This document shows positions 476 through 20,388 of a stretch of 32,000 bases of DNA, in pieces. The DNA is from Candidatus Lokiarchaeum ossiferum (GTDB taxonomy: Archaea > Asgardarchaeota > Lokiarchaeia > Sigyniarchaeales > Promethearchaeaceae). The notes beneath the pieces were generated by a model that was not told where the DNA came from, ran no database searches, and saw only the letters and a list, made by a program, of their open reading frames with translations. The stretch's first letter is position 1. Each line of letters opens with the position of its first letter. The stretch lies in NCBI GenBank assembly GCA_025839675.1, contig CP104013.1, forward strand, positions 3,270,001 through 3,302,000. The letters run 5' to 3'. A program made the translations under genes and the position numbers.

Positions 476-3400
476 ATGAAACCAAAAAAATTAATCTTCA
501 TCTTTTTTGTAGGAATCCTCATGGTCCCCATCTTCCCCCAAGCGCAACTTTCCTTCGCAAGTGCAACGGTGGGTCAAAGTAATGGAGTCTGGGAAATAAC
601 CTATAATACTGATGATAGTGCAAATGTTGGTCCACTCTATGATGCCAACGGATATACTGCAATTTCCGAGTTAGATCCTGCAAGTTCAACCAATACATGG
701 TACGATTATTCCCCATTAGAAGCAGGACATCAAGAATTAGACTTTGAATGCAATATCAAATTTGAAAATGGAGGTCGGAAACACATTTATCTGTATTTGG
801 ATAACGATCCCTCCCAATATTTCCTACTGCAATATGAAAATGGGGATGTGTTTTCATACACTACAGATAATTGGGTAAAACAAAGCCAAAATATGGATTA
901 TAGTTATAATACTTGGCTGTCGTTTCAGTTAGAACTGATTCAAACCAGCTCCACCACAAAATTATTAACCGTAACTTTAGGAACCGATTCTTTTTCGATC
1001 GAACTGGATAGTGACAGTACTGTTGACGCACTCAAAATGCGCACAATGACGGCCGGAAGTTCCGTCTTCTTTTCTGACGTCGAAGTGTCTTATTTGGAGG
1101 AATCCTGGCAAAGAATTTATCCTGCGGAAAGCTCTGCATCTGCAATACCCCTTAATGATGAAACGGACGATGGACAGCTGTATTCAGATATTTATGAATT
1201 GGAGATGGACGTGGGACTGAATACGTGGTATGAATATACCAAATCGGGAATTGAATACAATTTCTTGCATTTTGATTGCAATTTGAAATTTCTGGATGGA
1301 GGAGCTAGAAAATGGTATTTTTATTTTGATGATGGGGCTTATTTCATTATCAACTTCGAAAATCAATGGATCAGATCATATGTTTCGAATGCTGACGTGC
1401 CAAACTGGGTTTCTCAGAGGTCTTACGGCTATGGGGATTGGAATCATATCGAATTTGATATCGTTCAAAAGAATTCTGTAACGAAAGAATTAAAAATGAG
1501 CATAAATGGGCTCCCATTTACTTATCCTGTCCTTATGTCTAGTGGATTCAATGTGAAAATTGAATACTTAAGAGTGCGTCTTCAAACTAGCGGAAGTCTT
1601 TTGATTTCCGATATGGCAGTCGATAATGATCAGGATGGATTGGATGAGGTTGAGGAAGCTATGCTAGGGTCTGATCCTCTCCTTAAAGATACTGATGGCG
1701 ATTTTGCTTATGATGGGGAAGAAGCCTCTATCTATGGAACGGATCCAACGGTTCCCGATGAGGCAAATGGTTTTACACTGATCTATCCAGAAGGTGGTCC
1801 AGGCAGAGTTGATATTTCCACAGATTCATCTACCGGTTCAAAGATATATCAGCTAAATTCGGAAGGTTCATCTAATACTTGGTTTCAACATCGATTGAAT
1901 GGCCTAAGAGCTCAATCTGTCGGATTTCATTGTAAAATAAAAGTGCATGATTCTCAAGAAAAATACTTGTACTTCTATTTTGACGATGGTGATTATTTCA
2001 TAGTTCGATTTATTAATCTACATCTCTATACCACCTATATTCATAATGGGGTTGGCAACGGGTGGAGGGATCAGTATATTTATTATGGGGACCAGGATTG
2101 GTTGGATTTATCAATCACTATTACTGGAGGACCCAATATCAAAACATTAGATGGATCTTTAGATGGAAATCCCTTTGATGATTCCGAATTCATGTATTCG
2201 AAAGGTGTTTTTGACAAGCTTAAAACCCGCCAAACTGGAACGGATAATTTGTGGAGTTTCACGGAGTTTATGATTGATTCGGATTTGGATGAGTTATCTG
2301 ATGTAGAGGAACTTGATTTAGGCACCGACCCGACGGATGCGGATTCGGATGGGGATGGGTTAACCGATGGAGAAGAAGTCAATAATCATGGCACTAACCC
2401 TCTAGTGGCGGATTCGGATGGTGATAAATTTTCTGATCTCCTCGAAATTCGTGGGAAATTAAATCCTATGGATCCCAGCGATGTATTTACAGATGAATGC
2501 ACCCTTGGAGGTTATGTTCCAAGCGAATGGGTGATTCCAAGCTCAGATGTGGGCATCCAAGCAATACCAAATGATTGGGATGATACTAGTTATTTAAGCG
2601 ACAATTTTATGCTCTCTATCAGTCCCACATATCGGCACGATTCTCGCAGTATAGAAATTCCATTACAACAACTAGATGTCATGGAAAATTTTGCATTTTC
2701 ATGTTATGTTGGGCAAAATTGGTTAGGAGGTGAAGAATCATGGCAAATTTATATTAAAGATACTTCAGGAAAAGGTTTTGCTTTGAACTATAAAGGTGAT
2801 CAATTCTACATTAGTGATACTACACTTCTTTCTTTCAGCTCGGATATTATTCAAGTACCTAATCCAAATAAAATTATGCATGAAATGAGGATAACCTTAA
2901 AATTTGTTGGCGATCATACCGATATTTTCCTATATTTTGCAGATACTTCAATGGGTAACTACTCCATCGAGATGGGAAAAATGTTATCCAAAATCATTGT
3001 TACTCGAACAACGACTTTTAATACTCCTGAGATACCCTCCTTTGGATTTGATAATTTTAAAATAATCCAATGGAAATGGCCTTATTATAAATTGATGGAA
3101 ACTTATCCTTCTAATGAAGGGAGAGATGGGCATTTAACCATTAATAACGTCCAAAAAGGCGTTGGTAAAGGACCTGGGTTCTATGAAATAATGTCCTCTG
3201 TCGATTTTGATCGGAATTGGAATGATGATGGTTTGGAAGGGATGCACTTGGATGGTTCTTTTTGTGATACAGGTTCCTTCAATTTTGTTTCTCATGCAAA
3301 ATTATTTGATATATTCGGGACTGGAATTACCCAACCTCAATCAAGTATAACTAAAATGGAACTTGATTTAAAGATCAATGGTCCTGATGGTCCTATCGAT

Positions 3401-3961
3401 TTATCTACAGCAAATGGAATCAGTAATCTAATAGATCCATACTTAATTAACATGATTGAAAATTTGGACACTATTACAGATTTAAATGAGGTTACTGAAA
3501 TTCTTGAAGGAGTTGGGACACTCTACCAAGTAACAGAACAATTATTAGATATGTATGATACCGTACCTGAATCACTTCAAGATGTTTTGGGACCAATTTC
3601 CCTGGTTATGGATCTTGTGGGTTTTTATTCTGAGGAAAATACACCACATCCCGAGTGGACTTGTGATACATTAGATAATGATCCTTATACCTATCAAGTC
3701 AAATATGACTTTGATTTCGTATCTGGAGTTTCTTGGGGTAGTACAAATTTTGCTATGGGATTTAATTTAAATTTTTACGAAGTAATTGAACATCTTGAAG
3801 AAACAATGGATATTGGTGACAGATACACTTTTACGATAACTCAAAGAACATTCTTGACTGGGATTTCCTATAATTGGATCTTTGGAAGATGGGAAGAATC
3901 CACAGAAATTATGGTTGAAGATACTTTTAAATTTGAACTCACATCCACCGATTCTTTTTAG
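476..3961 (+). CDS. Giant secreted multidomain protein 1 (1161 aa): signal peptide, 4 ConA/LamG-like modules, two TSP3-like Ca-binding repeat blocks, ~290-aa C-terminal domain of unknown function
   Basis: Long uninterrupted ORF. The N-terminus MKPKKLIFIFFVGILMVPIFPQAQLSFASA looks like a signal peptide. Repeated ~170-190 aa beta-rich modules share NTW[YF]...F.C.[IL]KF..GG.[RK]K..Y.YFDDG.YF and end in D[ND][FIV]x[IV]. DxDxDG motifs are present (DNDQDGLDEVEE, DTDGDFAYDGEE, DADSDGDGLTDGEE, DSDGDKFSDLLE). Confidence 0.9.
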   Translation: MKPKKLIFIFFVGILMVPIFPQAQLSFASATVGQSNGVWEITYNTDDSANVGPLYDANGYTAISELDPASSTNTWYDYSPLEAGHQELDFECNIKFENGGRKHIYLYLDNDPSQYFLLQYENGDVFSYTTDNWVKQSQNMDYSYNTWLSFQLELIQTSSTTKLLTVTLGTDSFSIELDSDSTVDALKMRTMTAGSSVFFSDVEVSYLEESWQRIYPAESSASAIPLNDETDDGQLYSDIYELEMDVGLNTWYEYTKSGIEYNFLHFDCNLKFLDGGARKWYFYFDDGAYFIINFENQWIRSYVSNADVPNWVSQRSYGYGDWNHIEFDIVQKNSVTKELKMSINGLPFTYPVLMSSGFNVKIEYLRVRLQTSGSLLISDMAVDNDQDGLDEVEEAMLGSDPLLKDTDGDFAYDGEEASIYGTDPTVPDEANGFTLIYPEGGPGRVDISTDSSTGSKIYQLNSEGSSNTWFQHRLNGLRAQSVGFHCKIKVHDSQEKYLYFYFDDGDYFIVRFINLHLYTTYIHNGVGNGWRDQYIYYGDQDWLDLSITITGGPNIKTLDGSLDGNPFDDSEFMYSKGVFDKLKTRQTGTDNLWSFTEFMIDSDLDELSDVEELDLGTDPTDADSDGDGLTDGEEVNNHGTNPLVADSDGDKFSDLLEIRGKLNPMDPSDVFTDECTLGGYVPSEWVIPSSDVGIQAIPNDWDDTSYLSDNFMLSISPTYRHDSRSIEIPLQQLDVMENFAFSCYVGQNWLGGEESWQIYIKDTSGKGFALNYKGDQFYISDTTLLSFSSDIIQVPNPNKIMHEMRITLKFVGDHTDIFLYFADTSMGNYSIEMGKMLSKIIVTRTTTFNTPEIPSFGFDNFKIIQWKWPYYKLMETYPSNEGRDGHLTINNVQKGVGKGPGFYEIMSSVDFDRNWNDDGLEGMHLDGSFCDTGSFNFVSHAKLFDIFGTGITQPQSSITKMELDLKINGPDGPIDLSTANGISNLIDPYLINMIENLDTITDLNEVTEILEGVGTLYQVTEQLLDMYDTVPESLQDVLGPISLVMDLVGFYSEENTPHPEWTCDTLDNDPYTYQVKYDFDFVSGVSWGSTNFAMGFNLNFYEVIEHLEETMDIGDRYTFTITQRTFLTGISYNWIFGRWEESTEIMVEDTFKFELTSTDSF
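1628..1771 (+). repeat. TSP3-like Ca-binding repeat block 1 of giant protein 1 (within CDS)
   Basis: Translation DNDQDGLDEVEEAMLGSDPLLKDTDGDFAYDGEEASIYGTDPTVPDE shows the DxDxDGxxDxxE pattern of thrombospondin type-3 repeats. Confidence 0.7.
2276..2483 (+). repeat. TSP3-like Ca-binding repeat block 2 of giant protein 1 (within CDS)
   Basis: Translation DSDLDELSDVEELDLGTDPTDADSDGDGLTDGEEVNNHGTNPLVADSDGDKFSDLLE. Contains the GC-rich conserved DNA island at 2321-2359. Confidence 0.8.
2321..2359 (+). repeat. GC-rich conserved DNA island, copy A (GGCACCGACCCGACGGATGCGGATTCGGATGGGGATGGG)
   Basis: Differs at only ~4 positions from the identical 39-mers at 6500-6538 and 9653-9691. Uses CCG/ACG/GCG/TCG codons, which look rare elsewhere in this AT-rich window. 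Confidence 0.85.
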
Positions 3962-4010: not shown

Positions 4011-4157
4011 TTTTTGATAATATTTTCTTGATTTAAACGGAGAAAATATGAGTTATGAAATTTTGATGAAAATCAAGAAATTCTTTTCATTATGAAAACC
4101 CGAAAAATAAGAAGAAAAACATCTTTCCGAAACATCCATTGATATCTCATCAAGCAC

Positions 4158-4300
4158 CTATAAAAAGATCACGATTGTGATAGTTGTGCAAATTGCGAGT
4201 GGTTTTTATAGATCAAAAGCAGTATTATGGATGTAACCATTTGAATACAAAAGGATAAATGGACAAAAGTGAGAAACCGATTTTTGTTCCACATCTCCTT
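4158..4300 (+). promoter_or_regulatory. Conserved upstream module, copy 2, in front of giant gene 2
   Basis: CTATAAAAAGATCACGATTGTGA...GCGAGTGGTTTTTATAGATCAAAAGCAGTATTATGGATGTAACCATTTGAATACAAAAGGAT. About 90% identical to copy 1. Starts 212 nt upstream of ATG 4370. Confidence 0.6.
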
Positions 4301-4369
4301 AATAGTAATTTTTCAATATCCTTTTTGTATTCTACTTGAACAATATTTAAAAGAAAAAAGGTAAACATA

Positions 4370-7300
4370 ATGAATCAAAAAAAAAGACTGCTATCGTTAT
4401 ATGCGTTGCTTCTTTTGACCTGTTCCGCCTTAATATATACTAATATGGGAACTGGGGTCGCAGAAATCAATATTTCAGAATGGACAAATGTGCCAAATTA
4501 TGGTCCTTCGGAATTATCCAATTTCATGGATGAAGATCGAGGGGAGGTAATGAAAATATATGATGCCGGATGGGGATTAGTCCAAAAGGATATAATTCCG
4601 CAATATATTGCAGGAAACAAAATTTGGTATTCCTATTGCGTGAAAGTAACTGGTGGGGAATCGAATGATTATGGGGGGGTGAATTTAAGCCCATCTACCA
4701 TCAACACTGGGGCCGTAGGAATGCGAATTCATGCGGGAACGAGTTTAAAATATTGGCTTGGAGATGGACAAGAGCATGATACATTCATTGACGTAGAAAC
4801 AGATCAATGGTACCACATAGGATGTTCATATGAGTCTGATGGTCAATTCGAAGCATATTTGGATGGGGAGATGATCCTTTCAGAACAAGCCAAGCCTATC
4901 AGCAATTTAAATTATGTTTATGCTGCAACATGCTCCCAATCAACTTTTCTGGATGATATCTATGTTGGAGTTTCTAAGGATGAAGCATTTAATAGTTTCC
5001 AAGATGAAGTAACTACCATACTAATTGATGATTTTTCGGAAGATTCGATTGGGTTTTTACCCTTAGATTGGGAACTAACTGCAGGCGGATATTCATCTTT
5101 TAGAACTGTAGAACTAGCCGAATCTCCATATGATCAGGTTTTAAGAATCTATGATTATGGACAAATTCCCACCGTATACTCAAAAGTGGAAAAAAAAATT
5201 CCCGCTGGTTTTGGATCTATTGAATGGGATTTAAAAACAGATTCACCAGGAAATAATAATGGTTATTTCGGATTGATGGAAGGGGATAATTGGTTGATAT
5301 CGATTGGGATAATAAATAATCAATTCAGAGTTTATTACCACAATGATCATGCTTCGTATAGTGTCTACGACACAAACGTTGTTGCTTCAAATCAATGGAC
5401 CCACCTTAAAATGGAGTATGATGGCGAGCAAGATGATTGTCGAATATTTGTTAATGGGGTTGAGGTAAGAAGTACACCATTCAATACAAAATATGCCTCT
5501 TTTGTTGATGGTCTATATTTACACTCAGGAGAAACTGGATCTGGAAAAAGTTATTATGACAACATTCAAGTGAACTGGGTAAAACAGCGTGTGGATTCTT
5601 TTATGGAATATGCTGGCATTATCAATTTTGATGATAGTTACAATCAAGATCCTCTAGCAAGCTGTCAAGAATGGTCTTCCGATGTTAATTCGGGCTATCA
5701 AATCCTAGATGCAGTGACCACACACTCAAGTGTATTGGCAATAACCGATTTAGTTTCTTCTTCGAGCTGCTTTACAAAACTAAACATTAATACTCCTTTA
5801 GGGGTTGGAGGCTGTGTAGAAGGATGGATATCTGGATCGAGTATCATAAATAATGCGTATATGGGCATTAATTTTGGGGATAATTACTGGTTATTGTCCG
5901 TGGGGATCAATAATGGTCATTTTAAAGTTTATCATCGAACGAGCTATTCAACATATAGTACCGCTGTTTCTACCATAGAAGCAAATCCAAATCAATGGTA
6001 TTTTGTTTGTTTATATTATGATGGTATGTCTGATATTTGTACTGTATCGATAAATGGTGTTACTATTGGACAATATAGTCTTTATGACGTTGCTGGAATT
6101 ACATCAATATATCTCCATTCGGGAGAAAATGGGGGGGGTACAAGTTACTATGACTCAATTTCGTATGATTGGGCAAATGAATATGATGCAGGAGATGCAA
6201 GAATAATAGACTTCGATAGGGACCATTTAAGCCACAAGTATGAAGAGACCCATATTTATGAATCTGGATTAAAAACTTCTCCTTGGAAATGTGATTCTGA
6301 TAATGATAGGGTAAATGATTGGGATGAAATCTGTGGTATCTACGGATATATTACTGATCCAACTCGGATTGACTCTGAACCGATTGGATCTGAAGATGGG
6401 CTGAATGATTATTTAGAATTATTTAGATATCATACCGATCCAACTCACTATGATTCTGACCGTGATGGGCTGACTGATGGAGATGAAGTCAACTTATATG
6501 GCACCGACCCGACCACGGCGGATTCGGATGGGGATGGGTTGACCGATGGGGAAGAAATAAATGGGTATGATATGATGTATCTAGACGAGCTTTATCATGA
6601 ACATAAATATGCAACATATTATACAAATCCGCTTCTTGTTGATTCAGATAATGATAATTGGAGTGATAAGCAAGAACTTGATTTGATACAAGCTGATTTA
6701 GATCAAATTCATGAACCTAATCCTGCGGTAGATAACTATCGGTATTTAGATCCAATGTGCCGAGATAGTGATTTAGATTTTCTTCCCGATGGATGGGAAG
6801 AATATTATGGACTCGATCCTTGTGAATATAATTCAGAGCTGGAATTAATCGAAAACAATGTTCCTGATATATATTATTTCTTTGCGCCAATTCAAGAACC
6901 AGATCAAGAACGGGTCTCGGGATTGCGAATTGCCTTGATATTCATTAATCCAGACATAGTTTCGCCAAGTTGGGCAAATTATTACTCTCGAGTCTTCGAT
7001 AAGCTAAATTATGATGTAGTGCATGTTTATACAGGTTACACCCGAAATCAGTTTTATAATGAATTGTATCAGTGGACACCCCTTATTCAAGCGGATGATG
7101 AATTATTTATAATGATCCAAGGACATGGGCTGGTGGAGGACAATGAAGAAGAAACTCCGTTGGCGTATTTCACTCTTTATGATGACGATGAGGTGTTTGA
7201 CCAGGATGTTGGTGAAATTTCGGGACAAGAGTTTTTAAATCGATTGAAGTTATTTAGTGCCTACAGGAAATGTGTGTTTTTTGATACCTGTTTCGCTGGA

Positions 7301-7618
7301 AAAGTGCTTGAAAATTTCGATTCGGAAATAACTAAAGTCTTTCAAACTACTGATGCCACCCACGCACAGTATAGAACAGTCAGCAAATTTGATAAGATTA
7401 TGCAGAATGCTAAGTGGGAGAAAAGAAATACTTATGTTGCATCATTTTTCTGGGATACTTTAGGTGCAACCACTCTAAGTGAAGATCCAATTTTCAAATA
7501 TATTCAGGCGGATTTGGCATTTGGTTCTCTTTTACCGTGGAGTCGAACGGGTTATCAAGGAGGAACTATTTTGAATCCGGGCTGGAATTATTTGGAACGT
7601 TATAATATATTTGTCTAA
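4370..7618 (+). CDS. Giant secreted multidomain protein 2 (1082 aa): signal/anchor segment, 3 LamG-like modules, long TSP3-like repeat region, C-terminal caspase-like (clan CD) peptidase domain
   Basis: Long ORF with hydrophobic N-terminus LLSLYALLLLTCSALIYTNMGTGVA. LamG-type signatures: QWYHIGCSYESDGQFEAYLDGE, NQWTHLKMEYDGEQDDCRIFVNGVEV, NQWYFVCLYYDGMSDICTVSINGV. TSP3 motifs: DSDRDGLTDGDE, DSDGDGLTDGEE, DSDNDNWSDKQE. The C-terminus carries an H-G / D-x-C-x-x-G dyad. Confidence 0.9.
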   Translation: MNQKKRLLSLYALLLLTCSALIYTNMGTGVAEINISEWTNVPNYGPSELSNFMDEDRGEVMKIYDAGWGLVQKDIIPQYIAGNKIWYSYCVKVTGGESNDYGGVNLSPSTINTGAVGMRIHAGTSLKYWLGDGQEHDTFIDVETDQWYHIGCSYESDGQFEAYLDGEMILSEQAKPISNLNYVYAATCSQSTFLDDIYVGVSKDEAFNSFQDEVTTILIDDFSEDSIGFLPLDWELTAGGYSSFRTVELAESPYDQVLRIYDYGQIPTVYSKVEKKIPAGFGSIEWDLKTDSPGNNNGYFGLMEGDNWLISIGIINNQFRVYYHNDHASYSVYDTNVVASNQWTHLKMEYDGEQDDCRIFVNGVEVRSTPFNTKYASFVDGLYLHSGETGSGKSYYDNIQVNWVKQRVDSFMEYAGIINFDDSYNQDPLASCQEWSSDVNSGYQILDAVTTHSSVLAITDLVSSSSCFTKLNINTPLGVGGCVEGWISGSSIINNAYMGINFGDNYWLLSVGINNGHFKVYHRTSYSTYSTAVSTIEANPNQWYFVCLYYDGMSDICTVSINGVTIGQYSLYDVAGITSIYLHSGENGGGTSYYDSISYDWANEYDAGDARIIDFDRDHLSHKYEETHIYESGLKTSPWKCDSDNDRVNDWDEICGIYGYITDPTRIDSEPIGSEDGLNDYLELFRYHTDPTHYDSDRDGLTDGDEVNLYGTDPTTADSDGDGLTDGEEINGYDMMYLDELYHEHKYATYYTNPLLVDSDNDNWSDKQELDLIQADLDQIHEPNPAVDNYRYLDPMCRDSDLDFLPDGWEEYYGLDPCEYNSELELIENNVPDIYYFFAPIQEPDQERVSGLRIALIFINPDIVSPSWANYYSRVFDKLNYDVVHVYTGYTRNQFYNELYQWTPLIQADDELFIMIQGHGLVEDNEEETPLAYFTLYDDDEVFDQDVGEISGQEFLNRLKLFSAYRKCVFFDTCFAGKVLENFDSEITKVFQTTDATHAQYRTVSKFDKIMQNAKWEKRNTYVASFFWDTLGATTLSEDPIFKYIQADLAFGSLLPWSRTGYQGGTILNPGWNYLERYNIFV
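6290..6833 (+). repeat. TSP3-like Ca-binding repeat region of giant protein 2 (within CDS)
   Basis: Translation CDSDNDRVNDWDE...YDSDRDGLTDGDEVNLYGTDPTTADSDGDGLTDGEE...VDSDNDNWSDKQE...RDSDLDFLPDGWEE. Confidence 0.8.
6500..6538 (+). repeat. GC-rich conserved DNA island, copy B (GGCACCGACCCGACCACGGCGGATTCGGATGGGGATGGG)
   Basis: Read directly: 39/39 identical to 9653-9691, although the flanking codons and the rest of the two genes are highly diverged. Confidence 0.9.
6911..7420 (+). other. Caspase-hemoglobinase fold (peptidase clan CD: caspase/metacaspase/legumain-like) domain at the C-terminus of giant protein 2
   Basis: The order of elements fits the fold: RIALIFINPD (beta1), then ...VHVYTGYTRNQFYNEL..., then DELFIMIQGHG (His919, codon 7124-7126), then KCVFFDTCFAGK (Cys974, codon 7289-7291). 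The His-Gly and D-x-C-x-x-G motifs are ~55 residues apart, as in clan CD cysteine peptidases. Confidence 0.6.
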
Positions 7619-7628: not shown

Positions 7629-7659
7629 AGTGAGTAGTTTTGCTCTCACTTTTTTTTTA
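7629..7659 (+). terminator. Hairpin (AGTGAG...CTCACT) plus T9 tract after giant gene 2
   Basis: An inverted repeat at 7629-7634 / 7645-7650 is followed by TTTTTTTTT at 7650-7659. It overlaps the 3' end (KKK codons) of the convergent gene 7646-7984. Confidence 0.4.
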
Positions 7660-7984
7660 TTTCTTCTGCATTTAATGAATCCCCAAAAATGATTTCCTTA
7701 CGCTTTCTATCAACCAACCGCAAATTTCCCGTAAATAAGGGCATATGAAGCCACGTATTTAATAATTTTTCCCCTCCCAGTACATGATCCCATGATTTTA
7801 ATATTGTTCTTTCGTTTTTCGATATTTTCGCAAGGCACGAGCTACAAAAAAAAATAGGTAATGGATATGGAATGGAATTATTGGGTCTTTTTTCGGTTAC
7901 CGTAATAAATGGGGACATATCAGCACGCCACTGTTGACATATGTAACATAAGTTTTTGGAAGGTACTTTGTTTTTGGCCATCAA
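7646..7984 (-). CDS. Hypothetical small protein with two CxxC pairs (possible zinc ribbon)
   Basis: 112-codon ORF. CYIC...(35 aa)...CSSC suggests a Zn-binding knuckle pair. The first codon is TTG followed directly by ATG. No family recognised. Confidence 0.45.
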   Translation of the reverse strand: MMAKNKVPSKNLCYICQQWRADMSPFITVTEKRPNNSIPYPLPIFFCSSCLAKISKNERTILKSWDHVLGGEKLLNTWLHMPLFTGNLRLVDRKRKEIIFGDSLNAEEIKKK

Positions 7985-8126: not shown

Positions 8127-8150
8127 GAATCGCCCTATGTTTTTGGGATG

Positions 8151-8295
8151 CTATAAAAAAAACTCGCTTGTGACAGAAGTGTAAATTTCGTGTGGTTTTT
8201 ATAGATCAAAGTCAATATTAAGCATGTAGCCATTTGAATGCAAAAGGATGAAATGACAAAACTGGAATTCAAGCTATCGTCTTTGCCTCTTCCAT
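8151..8295 (+). promoter_or_regulatory. Conserved upstream module, copy 3 (diverged), in front of giant gene 3
   Basis: CTATAAAAAAAACTCGCTTGTGACAG...GTGTGGTTTTTATAGATCAAAGTC...CATTTGAATGCAAAAGGATGAAATGACAAAACTGG aligns along its length with copies 1 and 2. Starts 200 nt upstream of ATG 8351. Confidence 0.55.
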
Positions 8296-8350
8296 TCCTC
8301 ACCTTGATTTTCTGCCAAAAGTTCTTCAATGGGATACAGTGTGATAAAAA

Positions 8351-11149: not shown

Positions 11150-11162
11150 TATTTTTTTTTAA
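11150..11162 (+). terminator. T9 tract directly after giant gene 3
   Basis: TAATATTTTTTTTTAACC: an oligo-T run starts 3 nt after the stop codon. Confidence 0.45.
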
Positions 11163-12555: not shown

Positions 12556-12661
12556 TGGTGGGAAAGGTGGGCTTCGGACCCACGACCTCTGCCTTATCAG
12601 GGCAGCGCTCGATTGCCTTCATATGAAGAGATACATACAATCCAGGCTAAGCTACTCTCCC
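12556..12661 (-). tRNA. tRNA-Ile (anticodon GAU) with a ~28-30 nt insertion (putative non-canonical intron) in the D-loop and an encoded CCA
   Basis: Hand fold of the minus strand. Acceptor stem GGGAGAG/CUUUCCC. D-stem GCUU/GAGC enclosing a 38-nt loop. Anticodon arm CUGCC-CUGAUAA-GGCAG. Variable loop AGGUC. T-arm GUGGG-UCCGAAG-CCCAC. Discriminator A plus CCA. Caveats: T-loop position 55 is C rather than the near-universal U, and the intron boundaries were not resolved by eye. Confidence 0.7.
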
Positions 12662-12695
12662 GTTTCTGTTTTTACAAAACTGTCTGATATTTAAC

Positions 12696-12705
12696 AATTT
12701 TATAA
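12696..12705 (-). promoter_or_regulatory. Possible TATA box (TTATAAAATT) for the tRNA-Ile gene
   Basis: An A/T-rich TATA-like octamer lies 35-44 nt upstream of the mature 5' end, compatible with a short leader removed by RNase P. Confidence 0.3.
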
Positions 12706-13244
12706 TAGTCGGGATAAACAGACTATAATTGTCACTCATGATGGAACAATTAAAAAATTTCCGATTTTCATTCCATAAAAAGTTCTCTGTTTCAATCCGA
12801 ACAGTGGTTTGACAGTTTTAGGGGATTCAATTTACATGGGTGGCATTTGCTTCGTGGGGGGGAATTGTCGAAAGTATATAAGAATCTAGGATCTAAAAAA
12901 AAAGTCGAGTTGTGCGAAAAAAACCAAGAAATCGCAATGTGAGAAGGACAATTTTTTACAACAACTGAGCAAAGAAAAACCATAGAATACTAGGAATTAT
13001 AAAATGGATTTCAGAGATTTGAGTGAAGAAGGGGTAAAGTTTTAAAAAAAATTGAAAGAAATAGTTTTTTGAAAGAAAGTGGGAAGATTCCACATAATTC
13101 TTCAAGTAATTTATTATTTACAAGCGTCTCAAGTTCTACATCGGTGGAGGATTTTAAAATCAAAGAGATTTTTTCATTTGTCATGGATCTTTTTTGATCG
13201 AATCTTTTTTAATTATTTATGACTAAATATAAATTAAGATAAAA

Positions 13245-13709
13245 ATGAAAGACAAACAAAATGTAGGAAATTCTGGAGAATATTATATTGCAGCTTTCCT
13301 TTCTGCACGAAATTTTATAGTAACCATCACCCTAGGAAGAGCTATTGGCTATGATTTATTAGCGGTCAATCCAAGCGGAAAGTTAATCAAAATATCTGTA
13401 AAAACTCGCGATTCAAACTCAACTCATAGATTTGTGTTATCAGAAAAATCTGAGTCATTAAAATCCGAGGATCTGTTCTATGCATTTGTTAGAACGAATA
13501 AATTTGAATCTCTACCCGATTTTTGGATGATTCCATCAAAAATTGTTGCTGAGCAAACATATAATAGCCATAAGAAATGGCTTCAAGAAGATAGCAATCA
13601 CAAGGATAATACAATGCGAACATTTTGGGTGAAAAATCATGATCTTTTCCCAAAGAATTGGGGAGAAACAATGGAGCAATATCATAATAGTTATTCTAGT
13701 TTGCTATAG
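13245..13709 (+). CDS. Putative PD-(D/E)xK-fold (restriction endonuclease-like / Hjc-YraN-like) nuclease, 154 aa
   Basis: The N-terminal pattern GEYYIAAFLSARNFIVTITLGRAIGYDLLAVNPSGKLIKISVKT matches the (G)E-helix, D-strand and [ESQ]xK-strand arrangement of PD-(D/E)xK nucleases. This is pattern recognition only. Confidence 0.5.
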   Translation: MKDKQNVGNSGEYYIAAFLSARNFIVTITLGRAIGYDLLAVNPSGKLIKISVKTRDSNSTHRFVLSEKSESLKSEDLFYAFVRTNKFESLPDFWMIPSKIVAEQTYNSHKKWLQEDSNHKDNTMRTFWVKNHDLFPKNWGETMEQYHNSYSSLL

Positions 13710-13864
13710 TTTTTTTTTAAGAATATTATCTCAGATAATGTTTTTTCATATTGATCATTCATAGAATGCAAGAAGAAATTGGATTTTTCCAAAGATAAAG
13801 AGGTCTGGAAAAAAAGTTGGACTTCTTTTTTAGAATTTTTTCTCATTTTGAGGAAAAATTTCTT

Positions 13865-13986
13865 TCAGGGAAAATCTCAGTTCATCCTTTTGCATTCAAT
13901 ATTTGAACACTATTCATAGGGTGATATTTCTATTTAAACACCGTGGTAATAGCAAAATAATCACTCATGTGATCTTTTTATATTTA
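13865..13986 (-). promoter_or_regulatory. Conserved upstream module, copy 5 (orphan; same subtype as copy 4)
   Basis: The minus strand reads AAATATAAAAAGATCACATGAGTGATTATTTTGCTATTACCACGGTGTTTAAATAGAAAT...ATATTGAATGCAAAAGGATGAACTGA. It is collinear with copy 4 (20602-20470) and shares the TGAATGCAAAAGGATGAA core with copy 3. No giant gene follows; there is only a 51-codon ORF at 13845-13690. Confidence 0.55.
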
Positions 13987-14227
13987 TCCATTGTTTCAAA
14001 TCGAGCATATCTTCCTCGTATTTTTCAACGAGAGTCCGATATTTCTTTTGATAGATGCGTTCGGGAAGCAAGCCAACACTCCGGAACAACAACATCATAT
14101 TCAAAAATTCCAGTTTCATTTCAAACGGCCAACTATCGATGGGGTCATCCTTATAAACGGAGACTCGAGAGATCCCCGCCGATCCCAAGTTGATTTCAAA
14201 ATGGCACTTTTTATGCGGTTTGTTCAC
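13961..14227 (-). CDS. Hypothetical protein (88 aa), possibly a gene fragment
   Basis: ORF with a GTG start. The composition looks protein-like (…SAGISRVSVYKDDPIDSWPFEMKLEFLNMMLLFRSVGLLPERIYQKKYRTLVEKYEEDMLDLKQWI) but I recognise no family. Other frames here hold competing ORFs. Confidence 0.3.
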   Translation of the reverse strand: MNKPHKKCHFEINLGSAGISRVSVYKDDPIDSWPFEMKLEFLNMMLLFRSVGLLPERIYQKKYRTLVEKYEEDMLDLKQWINIKRSHE

Positions 14228-14609
14228 TTTTTTCCCTCTTGCCCATCCAAAATGTTCTTATAGTATTTATTAGATCCCCACCTTTTAAAATAGATTTTGA
14301 AAAGAAAATAAGGAAAAAAAAATCCAGCAAAAAGATAGAAAGATATAAATAAATTATCGGTAACTTGCTACGGTAGTATAAACATAGTGAAATGTTGCCC
14401 CAGCATTGATACATTTGGGGTAGATTTCTTTAGGAATTGTATTAATCGAAGATATTATTTCCGTTAACGCTAAAACGAAACTTTTATACCGTCAAACTCC
14501 CGTATGAGAGTAAAAGTGCAGCCAAACCAGATAGGAATAAAATGGAGTTGAATGATGTAATAAAAAAAAATTTGTAATAAAAGGGGTTTTGGGAAATTGA
14601 AAGGGAGTT

Positions 14610-14882
14610 TTATTTCTTCATTTTATTCCCAGAGGGTTTGTTGTTCTTTAAACGACGATTCTCAATAGAATTTGCTTGAGCTCGAGTTTTTGTAGTCTTC
14701 ACAGATACTTTTGAAAAGTGTTTACTTGGATCCTGATGATGTTCTTTGATCCTTCTGTTAAGATTATTCGTCATCCCAGTATAAGCGGTTTTTCCTGATT
14801 TAGACTTTAAATTATATACACCAGGGGATTTTGGAATTTTAGAACGACTTTTTTTTGTGTTAGAATATGTTTTCGATGTCAT
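14610..14882 (-). CDS. Small GIY-YIG nuclease-superfamily protein (90 aa)
   Basis: PGVYNLKSKSGKTAYTGMTNNLNRRIKEH matches GIY-(x9-11)-YIG followed by the conserved R...(K/E)H of GIY-YIG domains. The tails are basic. Confidence 0.7.
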   Translation of the reverse strand: MTSKTYSNTKKSRSKIPKSPGVYNLKSKSGKTAYTGMTNNLNRRIKEHHQDPSKHFSKVSVKTTKTRAQANSIENRRLKNNKPSGNKMKK

Positions 14883-15504
14883 ATTAATTATTTCCTATTT
14901 TTTTTTACATTTATTGTGAGTGTCAAGGGGCATTAGCCGATTCCTCGCCTCAAATAAAGATTCAATTTAAATTTCTGCGAGATAAGGAATGTCAAATCAC
15001 TTGTATTCATAAGATTTTTTTGCATCCTTTCTCTTCTTACGCCATGAACCATCTTTGTTTCGGGTTCGGGGTTCCATTCCACCTTTTGAAGGTACATGAG
15101 GTCCAGAACGTTTTCCAGCGCGTCTATCTACCAAATTTTAATTCACCTGAAAGTTGTGGTAACAATAAGTTGATGTATTGAAAGCTTTTCGCTGTAATCA
15201 ATCTCAAACATTATTGATGTTATTTTGTGAATATTATACTTCACCAGAGATCTAGGGGAGATGTTCCAAGTAATTTCGGTGAGGTTTCAATGTAACCGAA
15301 GTCCGAACTTCCTTGAATTGAGTTTTCCTTCCAATCTCTAAATATATTATAACGTACCTCTTTTTAAAACTAAGTAAGATTTTGTCAAATATTTTTGTCA
15401 GTTATTGTCGATTTTGAATTTAATTAAGTTCTTTCATTGTGTTCAATAGAAAAATCATAATTTATATATACATATAAAAACAATAAACACGCTAGAGTGT
15501 TTAT

Positions 15505-16299
15505 ATGAATAATATAATTCCTCAAGAACGAAATATTTTAATTGTACCAATTGGATTAGAAATAGACCGCGTAATTGCAGGATGCAAACTATATCCAATT
15601 AATGTTATATATCTCTTACATAATCCGCTTGTGGATTCAACCAAATTTGCAGTAGAACGATATTCAAGTTATTTTGCAAAAGAAGTTAAGAATAGGATAG
15701 GGAGTTCTTTCAATAAAATAGAAGAAGAAATTACAAATTTAGGTTCTTTTCATGATTCATTAACATGTTTGAACAGAATAATGAAATTGGAAGAAAAAAT
15801 AGAAAGATTGGGACATATCTACATAAATATATCGACAGCATCAAAAACCTTCGCAATGGCAGCTTATTTATTTGCAAGTAGAAAACCAGAACTTTTCACC
15901 TTATTCTATTTACAATCAAACAAATACATCCTACTAGAGCATTTTAATAAAGAAAATTCTTCTTTGGATAAACTGGAAGAAGAATTTAGAAAATCTGGTT
16001 TAACTCAAGGCGATTTTGAAGTAGAAGAAATTCCAATTTTGAAAACAGAATGGTTCAATAAAGAGGAAGCAGAAATTTTACGTATTTTCGATGGAAATAG
16101 ATCTTTTGATTCATTATTGGAGTTGATAGCTAATCTGAAACAGGAAAATAATCCAAAAAACAGAATGAAGATCAGAAGAATACTTAACAAATTTGAAGAT
16201 CTTGGAATCATTCAGATGAAAAAACGTGGAAAAAATTTAATTATAACTCCTACAAAAAAACACAGCAGTATTTCAAATATGACTGGAGTTTTTTACTAA
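15505..16299 (+). CDS. Putative transcriptional regulator: Csa3/CARF-like Rossmann N-domain (HFX_2341/DUF6293-like) plus C-terminal winged helix
   Basis: NILIVPIGLEIDRVIAG...IYINISTASKTFAMAAYLFAS resembles, from memory, the VHIVPVGFxYDRV / VNVSxxPRxxxFA motifs of that family. The C-terminus (ILRIF...SFDSLLELI...RRILNKFEDLGIIQMKKRGKNLIITPT) looks like a wHTH. An A/T-rich TATA-like stretch lies just upstream. Confidence 0.5.
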   Translation: MNNIIPQERNILIVPIGLEIDRVIAGCKLYPINVIYLLHNPLVDSTKFAVERYSSYFAKEVKNRIGSSFNKIEEEITNLGSFHDSLTCLNRIMKLEEKIERLGHIYINISTASKTFAMAAYLFASRKPELFTLFYLQSNKYILLEHFNKENSSLDKLEEEFRKSGLTQGDFEVEEIPILKTEWFNKEEAEILRIFDGNRSFDSLLELIANLKQENNPKNRMKIRRILNKFEDLGIIQMKKRGKNLIITPTKKHSSISNMTGVFY

Positions 16300-16584
16300 T
16301 CCTCACATTTTTAGATAGAAAAAAACCCCCCTTGATGTTATTTGTGCTGATGCAGTCTCAACAGCATAAGGTTTCAAAAGGTGTGCATTAGCTAGTATTA
16401 GATTTTTAATGCATTACACTCAATGAATTAGCCCATTAATCGAATCTCAAATTTCATAATTATTTTGGAGTAAAAATGCAATATCACGAGCTCGAGTAGA
16501 GATTGAGTAAAATAAATTGCCTTCCAACTGAAAATATAAAAGAATAAATTTCAAATTAAATATGTCCATTTTTTGATTGATCGT

Positions 16585-16693
16585 ATATTGAATGCCTACT
16601 CATAAAAAATAAAACCATAAATACTTCCTCAGCGAAGTAATCACATACTTTTTTGATGGAATAGATACTTAAGTATGACCCCATGGACCAATT
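16585..16693. repeat. Direct repeat, left copy (DR-L), flanking the giant gene 4 cassette
   Basis: ATATTGAATGCCTACTCATAAAAAATAAAACCATAAATACTTCC (44 nt identical), then ~85-90% identity up to ...AAGTATGAC..GACCAAT, when compared with 20717-20832. Confidence 0.85.
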
Positions 16694-16756
16694 TTCTCTC
16701 ATTTCAAATTTCGAATTAGGATCTTTGCTCCTTTAAATATTTTTCATAGATACTGG

Positions 16757-16788
16757 AAAGAAAGAAAAAAGAAAAGAAAAAAGAATAA
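16757..16788 (-). terminator. T-rich tract after giant gene 4 (minus strand CTTTCTTTTTTCTTTTCTTTTTTCTTATT)
   Basis: Oligo-T runs on the coding (minus) strand lie immediately downstream of stop codon 16789-16791. Confidence 0.45.
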
Positions 16789-19700
16789 TTAGCCTCGTAT
16801 TGTTGAAATAGTCATGAAATTTGAAGTAAATCTTCCATCTAATGGTTGGTTCGTACCATCAATGCTCATATAGAAACCTGTAGTTATTTCGAAATTAACA
16901 ATATAGGAAATTGCACTAGATTCAGAAACTAGATCAGTAAAGAAATGCTTCATTGTTATTTCTCCATTAAAATATTTCGCTGGATTCATTGTCAAATATC
17001 GTGAACCTAAATCAAAATCCCAAGAAAAATAGTTCCCTTGAATTGATTTTGTTAGAAAATTTGGTTGAAAAGCAGAAACCATCCCACCTCCAACATTTAA
17101 TGCGCCAACTAACTCGTCTAATGGCCCTAAGGGACCATCTGCTATATTACTACCGAATAGTAATAATAATTCAAAAATTGCATAGGCCTCTGTTCCGACG
17201 CTTGCATCATATTCATCACCAAGATTGATACCATCGGTCTCATAATTGATTTCAGCATCCCCTGAACTGGTCCTGGACACATCAAGGTCCAATGGATGTA
17301 CTGGAACACCATCAATAAGAATTCCCATTGATATGGTTAATCCTTGAAGATATGCCCACACATCGAAACCATTATAGTCTGGATGATTGATCTTCGTAGA
17401 TTCAACACCAGTTTGGAACCTTAAATCAACTTCTCCATTTGTAGCACTAAAATCATGAAAACCTCCATCTTCTTCAAGCAAACCCCAATCATATTGGAGA
17501 CCAAAATGACCTCCCAAATATCCAGAGCGAGGATCTGAACTGGAAAATTCGTGTTTGGGTCCAGCCGTCATATCATCATGTAAATTATAATAATTATTAT
17601 CAAGAAATTGATAGGTTGTTGGATTAGAATAGCAATTTTCATAATAATTAGAGATTTTTCCAAATTTGATGTTATCTACAAGAATATCTTGGGTTCCTTT
17701 AAAATAGAAACTTAAATAACTATACGAACTATCAGGAAGAACAGCTATCATAGGATAAGACACACGGCTTACCCCATCAATTCGAAAATCATAAGTATTG
17801 GTGTATCCATTCATTTCGACTTGAATGTTGTATAATGAATTCGGAGACAACTCTATTTGCTGAATTTTCTCACCTGTAGGAGTGAAAAAACCGATACTGT
17901 ATCCATAAAACTTTATAAATAGATTATAGTTCGTCTGAGGAATCATATTTGACCAGCCTAATTGTAACCACATTTCATCTATTCGAGTGCTTGTAAATAA
18001 ATCAAAGCTAATTACATTATTCTCAAAATTCTTTGAAGGATACACTTTTTTATTGAATCCCATAAATCCTTCAGACACATGGACCTTTAAGGCTTTTGAA
18101 GATTCTGTACCAAAGCCAACAGAATCTGCAACTACTTCAGTATATTGGTTTGAATTTTCTGAGAAACTAATTTCCCATCCATCTGGATTTGATCCGATGC
18201 TATCATATTCAAAATGTCCAATATTCCAGCTTAAATCACCTCTGTCGTACCCATTTTTAGGATCTGTTTTAAAAATTTTCACTTCTAATCCATCATTGAA
18301 CCCATCCTCATCCGAATCAGCATCCATCGGGTCGGTACCCAAGGCAATTTCTTCCCCATCTAAAAGTCCGTCATCATCCGAATCAGAATCTAAAGGATCC
18401 AATCTATTTGATGAAATAATCACATTATCTAGGTAAGTACTATATCCAGAATAACTGTTATAAGTTTCAAAAACAACACGTGAAATATAGGAAGCAGGTG
18501 AATAAAAAGCAAGATTTGAACCTATAGAGGAGGAACCTAGGAAAACCGAAAATGTATCCGTTGCAGTATCCCAACTGATTTTGAGATCTTTTTTCCATTC
18601 ATTACTCGCAATATTTTCCAACAAATGCCAAGAAGATCCGTCGTGATACTGCAGCCCATTATGGCCTCCATAACTTACAATTGCCATTAGAATTGCATTT
18701 GAACTACCTTGCCGTAAGAGTATATAAGTTATTTTCGCAGTATCAGTGGACATAATATCAAAAATCATTGATCCTTTTGTAGTATATTCAAAATTTTCAT
18801 AAATACCTGCAGAACCTGTTCCATGATCATACAATATAGCAGTATCATCATTCGGCCATGCTCCTGATCCAACGATGCATCCAGACCCTTGAATTTTCGT
18901 CCATCCTCCAAAAGGATTTTCATTCGCAGGGAATTCCCAAGAATTTAACTCGCGATTTCCATTTATATATGAAAATTCCACACAATCGCTTAATCCATCG
19001 TTGTCAGAATCAGAATTTGTTGGATCAGTATGTTCTCTAATTATAACATCGTCCACGTAGGCAGAATAACCGGTTTGGCTACTATAGGTTTGGAACTGCA
19101 TTCGAGAAATGGAGCTGACAGGATTATAGAAATCAAGGTTTTCAAATTTTTCTCCCGAATCTGGAAAATATATATTACAGGTGTCTGATAAGGTGTTCCA
19201 TGATATCTTGATAGATAACCAATCAGTATAGCTACATTCTTTCAACAAATTCCATTGGGTACCATCATGATATTGTATGCCATCTCCTTCTGCTGTACGA
19301 TAATTTGCCATTAATATCGCATTTGTGCTTCCTTGCTTCAAGAGAATATAGGTTAATTTAAAATTCGCATCAGTCCTGAATTCGAACTCCGCTGAACCAG
19401 AAATTAAGGAAGAATCAAAATTAGCATAAATTCCAGCGGTTCCCGTGCCATAATCATAAAGGCGAACGGCATTTGGATACGGCGTATTAACGCTATCTAC
19501 CACTGCACAACCGGATCCTGTAACGATGTTCCAATCCATCCCTAAGTCATCATCTACGCCATTATCTGTAAAATCCCAATCATAGAGTAAATTACTTCCT
19601 CCGATTCCACACATCTCATCAAAATCGGTCAATCCATCCCCGTCAGTATCGAAATCCTGTTCATAAAGAATTTCCATTTCCTCTTCAGAGAATGCTCTAT

Positions 19701-20388
19701 TAAACAAACCAATTTCATCAATTTTTCCATCAAACCATCGATTATCAGCTGATCGATAGGTTCCGATATTCATGCTAGTAATCGGTTCTAAAGATCCACC
19801 TGTGGAGACTTGTCCTTCCAATTGACCGTTTAAATATAATTTAAATCCATTGGTAGTATCTTTCTGATAAGTTGCCGCTAATTGATACCACTGGTTTGGA
19901 ACAATTATTGTGGTTCCTGAAGCGACTCGCGTACTTGAATCTCTAAGATATCCTTTTGCAATGGGTGTTGGACCTTTTTCGATGCATATCGAAATGGACC
20001 ACAATGGGGTTGTTTCTAATATAAAGCGCCTACCTTCTAATCCCCCTCCTCCTCCATCCCATTTAAACCATGCGGAGATTGTATATTCTGTAGAACCATC
20101 GGGAAGAGTCTTATGTGGCACCGAAACATAATCATTGGAACCATCAAAATTATAACAAGAACTTGATCTTCCCAACCGATCGGTGGCAGGGGTTGCACCA
20201 TGAAAAACACCATTAAAATCGTTTACAGGCTCATTAGCATTTCCATCCAAATCCCACCGCGCATATAGATCATCAGCATAAGATAGAAGAGCGGAACTTG
20301 GTTGTAGAAATTGTTGAATAGTTAAGGGTAAGCACAAACATATCAACAAAGTGGCAGTAATTTTTGTTTTATATTTCATTTTTCTCAT
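16789..20388 (-). CDS. Giant secreted multidomain protein 4 (~1199 aa from ATG 20388; the ORF extends to TTG 20415): signal peptide, LamG_3-type domain, 2 tandem ~190-aa modules, TSP3-like repeats, a further module, ~300-aa C-terminal domain related to that of protein 1
   Basis: Long ORF. MRKMKYKTKITATLLICLCLPLTIQQFLQPSSALLSYA looks like a signal peptide. It has a textbook LamG segment and a tandem duplication (…VRLYDYGTGTAGIYANF…YILLKQGSTNAILMA…YHDGTQWNLL… and …AILYDHGTGSAGIYENF…YILLRQGSSNAILMA…YHDGSSWHLL…). TSP3 motifs lie at 19612-19656, 18973-19032 and 18259-18405. Confidence 0.9.
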   Translation of the reverse strand: MRKMKYKTKITATLLICLCLPLTIQQFLQPSSALLSYADDLYARWDLDGNANEPVNDFNGVFHGATPATDRLGRSSSCYNFDGSNDYVSVPHKTLPDGSTEYTISAWFKWDGGGGGLEGRRFILETTPLWSISICIEKGPTPIAKGYLRDSSTRVASGTTIIVPNQWYQLAATYQKDTTNGFKLYLNGQLEGQVSTGGSLEPITSMNIGTYRSADNRWFDGKIDEIGLFNRAFSEEEMEILYEQDFDTDGDGLTDFDEMCGIGGSNLLYDWDFTDNGVDDDLGMDWNIVTGSGCAVVDSVNTPYPNAVRLYDYGTGTAGIYANFDSSLISGSAEFEFRTDANFKLTYILLKQGSTNAILMANYRTAEGDGIQYHDGTQWNLLKECSYTDWLSIKISWNTLSDTCNIYFPDSGEKFENLDFYNPVSSISRMQFQTYSSQTGYSAYVDDVIIREHTDPTNSDSDNDGLSDCVEFSYINGNRELNSWEFPANENPFGGWTKIQGSGCIVGSGAWPNDDTAILYDHGTGSAGIYENFEYTTKGSMIFDIMSTDTAKITYILLRQGSSNAILMAIVSYGGHNGLQYHDGSSWHLLENIASNEWKKDLKISWDTATDTFSVFLGSSSIGSNLAFYSPASYISRVVFETYNSYSGYSTYLDNVIISSNRLDPLDSDSDDDGLLDGEEIALGTDPMDADSDEDGFNDGLEVKIFKTDPKNGYDRGDLSWNIGHFEYDSIGSNPDGWEISFSENSNQYTEVVADSVGFGTESSKALKVHVSEGFMGFNKKVYPSKNFENNVISFDLFTSTRIDEMWLQLGWSNMIPQTNYNLFIKFYGYSIGFFTPTGEKIQQIELSPNSLYNIQVEMNGYTNTYDFRIDGVSRVSYPMIAVLPDSSYSYLSFYFKGTQDILVDNIKFGKISNYYENCYSNPTTYQFLDNNYYNLHDDMTAGPKHEFSSSDPRSGYLGGHFGLQYDWGLLEEDGGFHDFSATNGEVDLRFQTGVESTKINHPDYNGFDVWAYLQGLTISMGILIDGVPVHPLDLDVSRTSSGDAEINYETDGINLGDEYDASVGTEAYAIFELLLLFGSNIADGPLGPLDELVGALNVGGGMVSAFQPNFLTKSIQGNYFSWDFDLGSRYLTMNPAKYFNGEITMKHFFTDLVSESSAISYIVNFEITTGFYMSIDGTNQPLDGRFTSNFMTISTIRG
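18259..18405 (-). repeat. Main TSP3-like Ca-binding repeat block of giant protein 4 (within CDS)
   Basis: Translation RLDPLDSDSDDDGLLDGEEIALGTDPMDADSDEDGFNDGLEVKIFKTDP. Confidence 0.8.
18301..18339 (-). repeat. GC-rich conserved DNA island, copy D (minus strand GGTACCGACCCGATGGATGCTGATTCGGATGAGGATGGG)
   Basis: About 4-5 mismatches to copy A (2321-2359), with the same position in the TSP3 linker. Confidence 0.8.
19660..20275 (-). other. Laminin-G_3 / concanavalin A-like lectin domain at the N-terminus of giant protein 4
   Basis: LYARWDLDGNANE...FHGATPATDRLGRSSSCYNFDGSNDYVSVPH...YTISAWFKWDG...NQWYQLAATYQKDTTNGFKLYLNGQLEG...NIGTYRSADNRWFDGKIDEIGLFNRAFSEEEME carries all the classic LamG_3 landmarks (FDGxxDYVxV, W, W-x-hydrophobic-A-x-TY, LYxNG, F-x-G-x-IDE-hydrophobic-x-hydrophobic-x-NRA-hydrophobic-S). 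Confidence 0.8.

Follow-up and report, generated by a model that had tools for sequence, protein, structure and literature searches.

Prokaryotic extracellular proteins that combine LamG_3 modules with bacterial-type thrombospondin type-3 (TSP3) repeats are widespread, and include the gliding and cohesion proteins CglD and MtsD of Myxococcus and archaeal proteins named 'calcium-binding proteins'. These proteins show a signal peptide, ConA-like modules, linkers with the DxDxDGxxDxxE motif and an acidic composition. Most of the archaeal TSP3 relatives contain long TSP3 arrays; the inspected ones (P0003, P0008 and P0010) carry a transmembrane anchor at the C-terminus, and N-glycosylation sequons are enriched in several of the relatives. 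In the cultured Asgard archaeon Candidatus Lokiarchaeum ossiferum, which shows no ordered S-layer, many unidentified proteins protrude from the surface and are thought to mediate the contacts with partner cells (PMC9834061). A stretch of 32,000 nucleotides of this archaeon (contig CP104013.1, positions 3,270,001 to 3,302,000), called here the window, contains four long open reading frames (ORFs), p1 to p4, whose N-terminal architecture belongs to this widespread LamG_3 plus TSP3_bac extracellular class, with signal-peptide-like N-termini, modules, linkers and acidity of the same kind. Their TSP3 stretches alone match the CglD and MtsD models of NCBIfam with 25-31 bits and, because these scores are far under the equivalog cut-offs of 400-800, p1-p4 are not orthologues of CglD or MtsD. 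Unlike the archaeal TSP3 relatives, they contain few TSP3 units, are unanchored, end in orphan C-termini and are strongly depleted of sequons.

The same types of domain also occur together in eukaryotic thrombospondins and in laminin, agrin and neurexin, with type-3 repeats that follow a LamG-like domain at the N-terminus and precede a lectin-like beta-sandwich, and the model of a p1 module superposes on the LG domains of laminin, agrin and neurexin. The initial annotation of this DNA had read the domain set of p1-p4 as an echo of thrombospondins, but the resemblance is limited to domain types: a Pfam scan of the four proteins at E<=0.01 gave only TSP3_bac, Laminin_G_3 and two weak sialidase-type carbohydrate-binding module (CBM) matches, and neither a match to the TSP_3, TSP_C, EGF or TSP1 profiles nor a coiled coil was found. 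Since TSP3_bac and LamG_3 are widespread in prokaryotes and no eukaryotic profile was matched, there is no specific evolutionary link to thrombospondins, and nothing here ties p1-p4 to eukaryotic matrix proteins.

The interpretation that we favour, to which we give a probability of about 0.5, is that p1-p4 are co-regulated, Sec-exported and unglycosylated proteins that act as calcium-dependent lectins or adhesins. A promoter element shared by the four genes and an avoidance of sequons in the four proteins make them probably extracellular binding proteins, and not toxins with swapped ends.

Organization of the four genes

The array contains the following genes (coordinates are those of the window):

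476-3961, + strand: p1 (NEF87_002777, 100% identity), 1161 aa from the ATG at 476; signal peptide, three ConA-like modules, TSP3 repeats, a probable fourth module and an orphan C-terminal domain
4370-7618, + strand: p2 (NEF87_002778), 1082 aa; signal peptide, three LamG_3 modules, about five TSP3 repeats and a putative caspase-like C-terminal domain
8351-11149, + strand: p3 (NEF87_002780), 932 aa; signal peptide, two clear modules, TSP3, a probable third module and an orphan C-terminal domain
16789-20388, - strand: p4 (NEF87_002787), 1199 aa from its ATG; signal peptide, LamG_3, TSP3, module 2, TSP3, module 3, two TSP3 repeats, a possible fourth module and an orphan C-terminal domain

The lengths agree with those first proposed for the four ORFs. 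In the public records the products are named "hypothetical protein" or "LamG domain-containing protein", and a literature search found no mention of the four locus tags or of LamG proteins of L. ossiferum. The proteins range from 106 to 134 kDa and are very acidic, with an isoelectric point of about 4.1-4.3. The GC content at third codon positions is 0.26-0.31 in p1-p4 and 0.20-0.33 in the neighbouring genes; because of this equality the four genes look native, and an origin by horizontal transfer is unsupported. Protein database searches retrieved no orthologues of p1-p4 in any other genome searched, other Asgard archaea included.

Shared upstream element

The loci share the following DNA elements:

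236-409 (core 249-302), + strand: upstream element before p1 (repeat family D1, pattern search, alignments A3 and A4)
4146-4319 (core 4159-4212), + strand: upstream element before p2, 71% identical to the p1 copy
8139-8312 (core 8152-8205), + strand: upstream element before p3, 76% identical to the p1 copy (D1, D5, D7)
20548-20619 (core 20548-20601), - strand: upstream element before p4, a variant with the TTTAAATA box (I2, I3)
13929-13982, - strand: fifth, orphan copy of the core (D6, pattern search)
16585-16682, + strand: left copy of a 98-nt direct repeat (D3)
20717-20814, + strand: right copy of the 98-nt direct repeat (D3)

The 54-nt core, defined by the pattern TATAAAAARAWCWYN4GTGN7TGN13GTTTWWATAGA, is found five times in the window and in none of 100 shuffles. 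Four of the copies precede the start codons of p1-p4 by 199-227 nt, each in the orientation of its gene, and the fifth has no ORF of at least 60 aa downstream on its strand. Around the core, the copies before p1, p2 and p3 are 71-76% identical over 174 nt; the similarity between those of p1 and p3 extends to about 235 nt, reaching upstream to position 8080 on the p3 side. This is the longest conserved DNA block common to the loci in the DNA repeat comparison, and only the stretches coding for TSP3 repeats reach a similar nucleotide identity (70-74% over 87-102 nt), the proteins being otherwise almost unalignable. The upstream element, which the initial annotation did not mention, is the best evidence for a common origin or regulation of p1-p4.

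Within the element, CTATAAAAA and TTTTTATAG form an inverted pair, with an ATCAC-N4-GTGAT palindrome directly after the first box. It also carries a TATA-like box of archaeal type, which reads TTTTTATA (TTTAAATA in the variant of p4 type), and a conserved downstream motif, TTGAATRCAAAAGGATGAA. These features point to a promoter plus an operator or leader, which would imply a common regulation of the four genes. Two other candidate functions were rejected: RNAalifold gave -3.6 kcal/mol and almost no covariation for a structured RNA, and the short reading frames, compared by eye, differ among the copies, against an upstream ORF. A search of genome and metagenome contig collections, evidently without the L. 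ossiferum genome itself, returned no matches to the element.

From p1 to p2 and from p2 to p3, the copies of the element follow each other at 3910 and 3993 nt, and the 98-nt direct repeats that bracket p4 and its upstream element (94% identity) are 4132 nt apart. These distances fit a unit of about 4 kb that was duplicated and whose coding regions then diverged extremely, and a later capture of the promoter is equally possible. The bracketing repeats also suggest a duplicated or mobile cassette, or a recombination substrate. The short contigs L001-L005 of the Logan collection, which carry p1 and p4 and stop just beyond these genes, were considered as monocistronic transcripts and rejected. The mapped ends (L001 for p1 and L005 for p4) fall within the repeated elements D1 (upstream element) and D3 (98-nt repeat), and so reflect breaks in the assembly, which give no evidence that the genes are expressed.

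Sequon depletion and protein ends

[quoted passage not shown] The four proteins contain only six of these sequons in 4374 residues, versus 42-43 expected (z about -6.3), and the lowest count among 1000 local shuffles was 24. Both residues are affected two positions after Asn, with four Ser versus 24 expected and two Thr versus 18 expected. The control patterns Q-x-S/T, D-x-S/T, N-x-A/G, S/T-x-N and N-x-D/E are at expectation, and the 15 other ORFs of the window are undepleted (35 sequons observed, 28 expected). In eukaryotes, the loss of sequons at places where a glycan would do harm is one of the clearest marks of secretory proteins (PMC5562741). From the depletion we infer that the four proteins meet the oligosaccharyltransferase, and hence that they are exported, and that glycans on them are selected against.

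The ends of the proteins are consistent with export. As the initial annotation had proposed, all four show a signal-peptide-like N-terminus, with a K/R-rich stretch followed by the only strongly hydrophobic segment that the hydrophobicity scan detected in each protein, and in p1, p3 and p4 an Ala-X-Ala-like site is located after this segment. For p1 the start codon matters: read from the ATG at 476, the protein has a canonical signal peptide (MKPKKLIFIFFVGILMVPIFPQAQLSFASA) with its n-region and h-region, and the distance from promoter to ATG equals that of p2-p4, while the database protein (1146 aa, in NCBI and Logan) begins at M16, 15 codons downstream, and loses most of the signal peptide. 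The same scan found no C-terminal hydrophobic anchor in any of the four, again as first proposed. They are thus unlike the anchored, S-layer-type surface glycoproteins of archaea, as they are sequon-poor and have no C-terminal transmembrane or PGF-CTERM-type anchor. Taken together, the N-terminal segments and the sequon depletion argue for the export of p1-p4.

The same data bear on whether p1-p4 have a function at all. They could be functionless or fast-decaying lineage-specific ORFs, leftovers of tandem duplications, or cytoplasmic proteins with incidental hydrophobic N-termini, as the lack of orthologues would allow; the orphan fifth promoter copy and the nuclease/CARF island between p3 and p4, described below, also point to local rearrangement. 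This is scarcely credible: four intact ORFs of 932-1199 codons at 35% GC are very unlikely without selection, the sequon depletion and the conservation of the upstream element indicate that selection is ongoing, and the repeat modules retain conserved aromatic and core positions in the module alignments.

ConA/LamG-like modules and TSP3 repeats

The following modules were delimited:

563-1090, + strand: p1, module 1 (internal repeats, alignment A1, AlphaFold2 model, Foldseek)
1112-1627, + strand: p1, module 2 (internal repeats, alignment A1)
1793-2278, + strand: p1, module 3 (internal repeats, alignment A1)
2483-3070, + strand: p1, module 4, a probable beta-sandwich module (FGFDNFKI module-end strand motif; hhalign probability 7% versus A1)
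4472-4984, 5012-5584 and 5612-6184, + strand: p2, LamG_3 modules
8483-9034 and 9047-9604, + strand: p3, two clear modules
9773-10405, + strand: p3, probable module 3 (hhalign probability 39% versus the module alignment A2)
19666-20238, - strand: p4, LamG_3 module
19051-19563, - strand: p4, module 2
18427-18933, - strand: p4, module 3
17701-18213, - strand: p4, possible module 4

Self-comparison shows highly significant internal tandem repeats in the four proteins. In p1 there are three copies of about 175-190 aa with 25-34% identity (E 1e-13 to 1e-19), aligned as A1; p3 contains two copies with 36% identity; and in p2 and p4 two duplicated copies, with 33-38% and 45% identity, respectively, follow a first LamG_3 module. 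The duplicated unit of p1 and p4 takes in the adjoining TSP3 repeat. An extra module is probably located ahead of the C-terminal domain of p3, and the module-end strand motif and weak profile signals indicate that there may be another in p1 and in p4.

Laminin_G_3 (PF13385, clan CL0004) matches p2 with 69.4 bits, in three stretches, and p4 with 78.9 bits, over a cut-off of 27.6, while p1 and p3 have no Laminin_G_3 match in Pfam at E<=0.01, nor do their separate segments at E<=5. The link of p3 to the others is by profile only: a profile of the p4 modules matches those of p2 with E 1e-8 and those of p3 with E 1e-4. The p1 modules compared with A2, the alignment of the modules of the other proteins, reach an hhalign probability of 0.6%, and their link is at the level of the fold. 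An AlphaFold2 model of p1 module 1, built from the three sequences of A1, is all-beta (predicted local distance difference test score, pLDDT, 60.4; predicted template modelling score, pTM, 0.60), and four of the five models score alike. Foldseek searches of the Protein Data Bank (PDB) with this model gave 168 matches at E<=0.001, the best with E about 2e-5 and the top ones all ConA-like, with template modelling scores of 0.44-0.51 normalised by the query and about 0.6 by the target. The matches include galectins, the LG domains of agrin, neurexin and laminin, CBM66, a legume lectin, PL7 lyases, a GH43 accessory domain and a glutamic peptidase. The term ConA/LamG-like modules then fits the four proteins, p1 at the fold level only and with moderate confidence, and the tandem duplication of such modules claimed from the sequence alone agrees with the internal repeats, the Pfam matches, the profiles and the predicted p1 fold.

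The TSP3 repeats are located between or after the modules:

about 1631-1786, + strand: p1, TSP3 repeat between modules 2 and 3
2276-2473, + strand: p1, TSP3 repeats with three DxDxDxxxD units, residues 601-666 (PF18884 47 bits, motif scan)
6293-6829, + strand: p2, about five TSP3 repeats
9608-9769, + strand: p3, TSP3
18235-18384, - strand: p4, two TSP3 repeats

The TSP3_bac profile (PF18884, cut-off 25 bits) matches p1 (47 bits) and p4 (50.7 bits) above the cut-off, and p2 (24.5 bits) and p3 (22.5 bits) just below it. The strict DxDxDGxxDxxE motif, which the initial annotation had described as the common linker, is found in the four proteins, once in p1 and p3, twice in p2 and four times in p4, in addition to looser copies. 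These repeats are predicted to bind calcium.

Divergence of the scaffolds

The four proteins had first been described as a constant scaffold with variable C-termini, analogous to the polymorphic toxins. The comparison does not agree with this description. BLAST similarity among p1-p4 is mostly limited to the TSP3 repeats, through which alone p1 can be aligned to the other three, and the module identity between p2, p3 and p4 is 14-22%. The N-terminal scaffolds have thus diverged no less than the C-terminal regions. Module copies within one protein are far more alike than copies across proteins, and therefore the arrays were built, or homogenised, separately in each gene.

Polymorphic toxins (Rhs/YD, CDI CdiA-CT, MafB, LXG and related systems) are, like p1-p4, clustered large secreted proteins with differing C-termini, and a family of toxins or effectors, in which a delivery scaffold carries interchangeable toxic C-termini against competitors, would account for four clustered genes whose C-terminal domains differ and have no homologues. 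An avoidance of glycosylation could suit the entry or insertion into another cell, and the 98-nt repeats around p4 suggest a cassette-like mobility. We consider this explanation highly unlikely, because the region expected to be conserved for delivery is not, no demarcating motif is present, and no known toxin domain was found with Pfam, NCBIfam or PADLOC. Family scans of the window, in agreement with the initial annotation, found no recognisable immunity gene and no dedicated secretion system near p1-p4. According to the ORF list, no small ORF follows p1, p2, p3 or p4 on the same strand; the sole small ORF of the array (7646-7984) runs on the other strand and matches no family in Pfam or PADLOC.

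C-terminal domains

The C-terminal regions contain:

3071-3958, + strand: p1, orphan C-terminal domain, about 296 aa long, acidic and helix-like in its middle part
6842-7615, + strand: p2, C-terminal domain with a probable clan-CD (caspase-like) fold
7124-7126, + strand: p2, candidate catalytic His919 (LFIMIQGHG)
7289-7291, + strand: p2, candidate catalytic Cys974 (VFFDTCFAG)
10406-11146, + strand: p3, orphan C-terminal domain
16792-17700, - strand: p4, orphan C-terminal domain

A word-seeded search of 5.8 billion clusters returned only self-matches for the C-termini of p1, p2 and p3, and an exhaustive phmmer search of 1.84 billion representative proteins with residues 735-1208 of p4 retrieved only p4 itself. 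The C-termini of p1, p3 and p4 have no Pfam, NCBIfam, PADLOC or PDB sequence match. A domain of about 300 aa shared by p1 and p4 had been suggested, but their similarity is at chance level: Smith-Waterman scores compared with shuffles gave z = -0.33, the phmmer search with p4 did not retrieve p1, and hhalign found nothing. The C-termini are also unsupported as further ConA-like modules, as hhalign versus both module profiles gave probabilities of at most 1.3%. Only a hint in that direction comes from the last residues: the terminal FFISDFKIH of p3 conforms to the module-end strand motif, and the ends of p1 and p4 are similar by eye.

The C-terminus of p2, first annotated as a caspase-like peptidase, shows a hydrophobic strand with His-Gly followed by a hydrophobic strand with D-x-Cys-x-x-Gly. 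This dyad is colinear, in the same order and with the same spacing, with that of the TSP3 protein P0010 (LLFFYSGHG...ILILDCCRSG), annotated by Pfam as Peptidase_C14/C13, and the NCBIfam caspase model NF047832 matches exactly the stretch of the dyad (E 1.1e-4). The match has 21.7 bits versus a cut-off of 140, there is no Pfam match even at E<=5 and no PDB sequence match, and the single-sequence AlphaFold2 model is unusable (pLDDT 35.6), with nothing at E<=0.001 in Foldseek. The predicted beta-alpha-beta-alpha-beta order is compatible with the caspase-hemoglobinase fold and is no evidence for it. Clan CD cysteine peptidases (caspase/metacaspase C14, legumain C13 and gingipain C25) are known fused to TSP3 repeats, as in P0010 and in the N-terminal domain of the Heimdallarchaeota protein P0003, and p2 shares the motif order and spacing of P0010; in these fusions, however, the peptidase is N-terminal, while the p2 domain is C-terminal, after the TSP3 repeats, and below thresholds. 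The His-Gly...Cys motif and the sub-threshold match thus support the first annotation weakly, and the domain is probably a caspase-like cysteine peptidase.

This domain leads to the alternative that p1-p4 are secreted enzymes for nutrient acquisition, with CBM-like modules that tether catalytic C-termini to polymers: a cysteine peptidase in p2, and unrecognised hydrolases or lyases in p1, p3 and p4. In favour are the motif and the sub-threshold caspase match of p2, the CBM66, PL7 alginate lyases, GH43 accessory domain and glutamic peptidase among the fold matches of the p1 module, and a Peptidase_C69-like gene nearby (23977-25284). Against it, even permissive thresholds gave no match of the C-terminal domains to a hydrolase or lyase family, family scans found no transporter or sugar- or peptide-utilisation genes adjoining p1-p4, and the assignment of p2 is itself under the family thresholds. 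A degradative role is plausible, above all for p2; as an explanation for the whole array it is rather unlikely.

Gene context

The gap of 5.6 kb between p3 and p4 (11150-16788), in which the orphan copy of the upstream element core is located, shows a low coding density and resembles a small island of defence or mobile genes that was inserted within the array. A decayed fifth paralogue was not found in it by tblastn of the four proteins versus the intergenic DNA. The gap contains:

13245-13709: PD-(D/E)XK nuclease-like ORF
14610-14882, - strand: short GIY-YIG ORF
15505-16299: CARF/HFX_2341-like ORF (PADLOC CARF3, 2e-15)

Between p2 and p3, the 112-aa ORF on the - strand (7646-7984) contains two Cys-x-x-Cys pairs and is zinc-ribbon-like; it may be, for example, a regulator. 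Beyond p4, the neighbourhood from 22040 to 30941 has no evident connection to p1-p4:

22040-22663: small GTPase-like protein (weak Gtr1/RagA match)
22723-23475: TraB/PrgY-like protein
23977-25284: Peptidase_C69-like protein
25355-26701, - strand: TPR/MIT protein
28941-30104: VWA protein
30144-30941: zinc-ribbon plus FHA protein

Proposed function and significance

As calcium-dependent lectin- or adhesin-like proteins, p1-p4 would be turned on together by the shared promoter/operator-like element and would leave the cell through the Sec pathway with a cleavable N-terminal signal peptide and no membrane anchor. Outside the cell, the three or four ConA-like modules of each protein would bind ligands, most likely glycans or surface proteins, the TSP3 repeats between the modules would bind calcium and the linkers would be stiffened by this binding. 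The C-terminal domain, specific to the species, would add to each protein an individual activity or specificity, probably that of a caspase-like cysteine peptidase in p2. A state free of N-glycans would fit lectins that avoid the sugars they recognise, or proteins that pack or bind tightly.

Several points weigh against this proposal. In the lack of orthologues, conservation gives no support for the function of p1-p4. In p1, p3 and p4 the last 250-300 residues, which may be the part that carries out the function, match nothing characterised, and the ConA-like fold also houses PL7 lyases, glutamic peptidases and glycoside hydrolases, some of them among the p1 fold matches. Several other archaeal TSP3 proteins are sequon-enriched (z +2.3 to +11), so the depletion in p1-p4 is unusual, and the retention of the unanchored proteins at the surface is speculative.

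It is plausible that p1-p4 are components of the protruding surface structures of L. ossiferum. A more specific proposal, which we regard as quite unlikely, is that they are jointly switched, glycan-free lectins within the surface densities of an envelope that has no S-layer: the modules would bind the N-glycans of the cell itself or of its syntrophic partners, the sequons would have been purged against self-binding, and the fast-evolving C-termini would set the specificity for partner or substrate.

Three features of p1-p4 are unusual for archaeal surface proteins. The shared element would mark out a small regulon together with a likely site for the binding of a regulator. The near-total removal of sequons, in contrast to the enrichment in several other archaeal TSP3 proteins, is an independent sign of export and a clue to function. 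The four C-terminal domains of 250-300 residues, for which billions of sequences gave no detectable relatives, may represent new folds or activities. For L. ossiferum, the p1-p4 cluster provides concrete candidates for envelope proteins and, if the proposal of glycan-free lectins were true, p1-p4 would mediate, at the molecular level, the contacts between cells that models of eukaryogenesis invoke.

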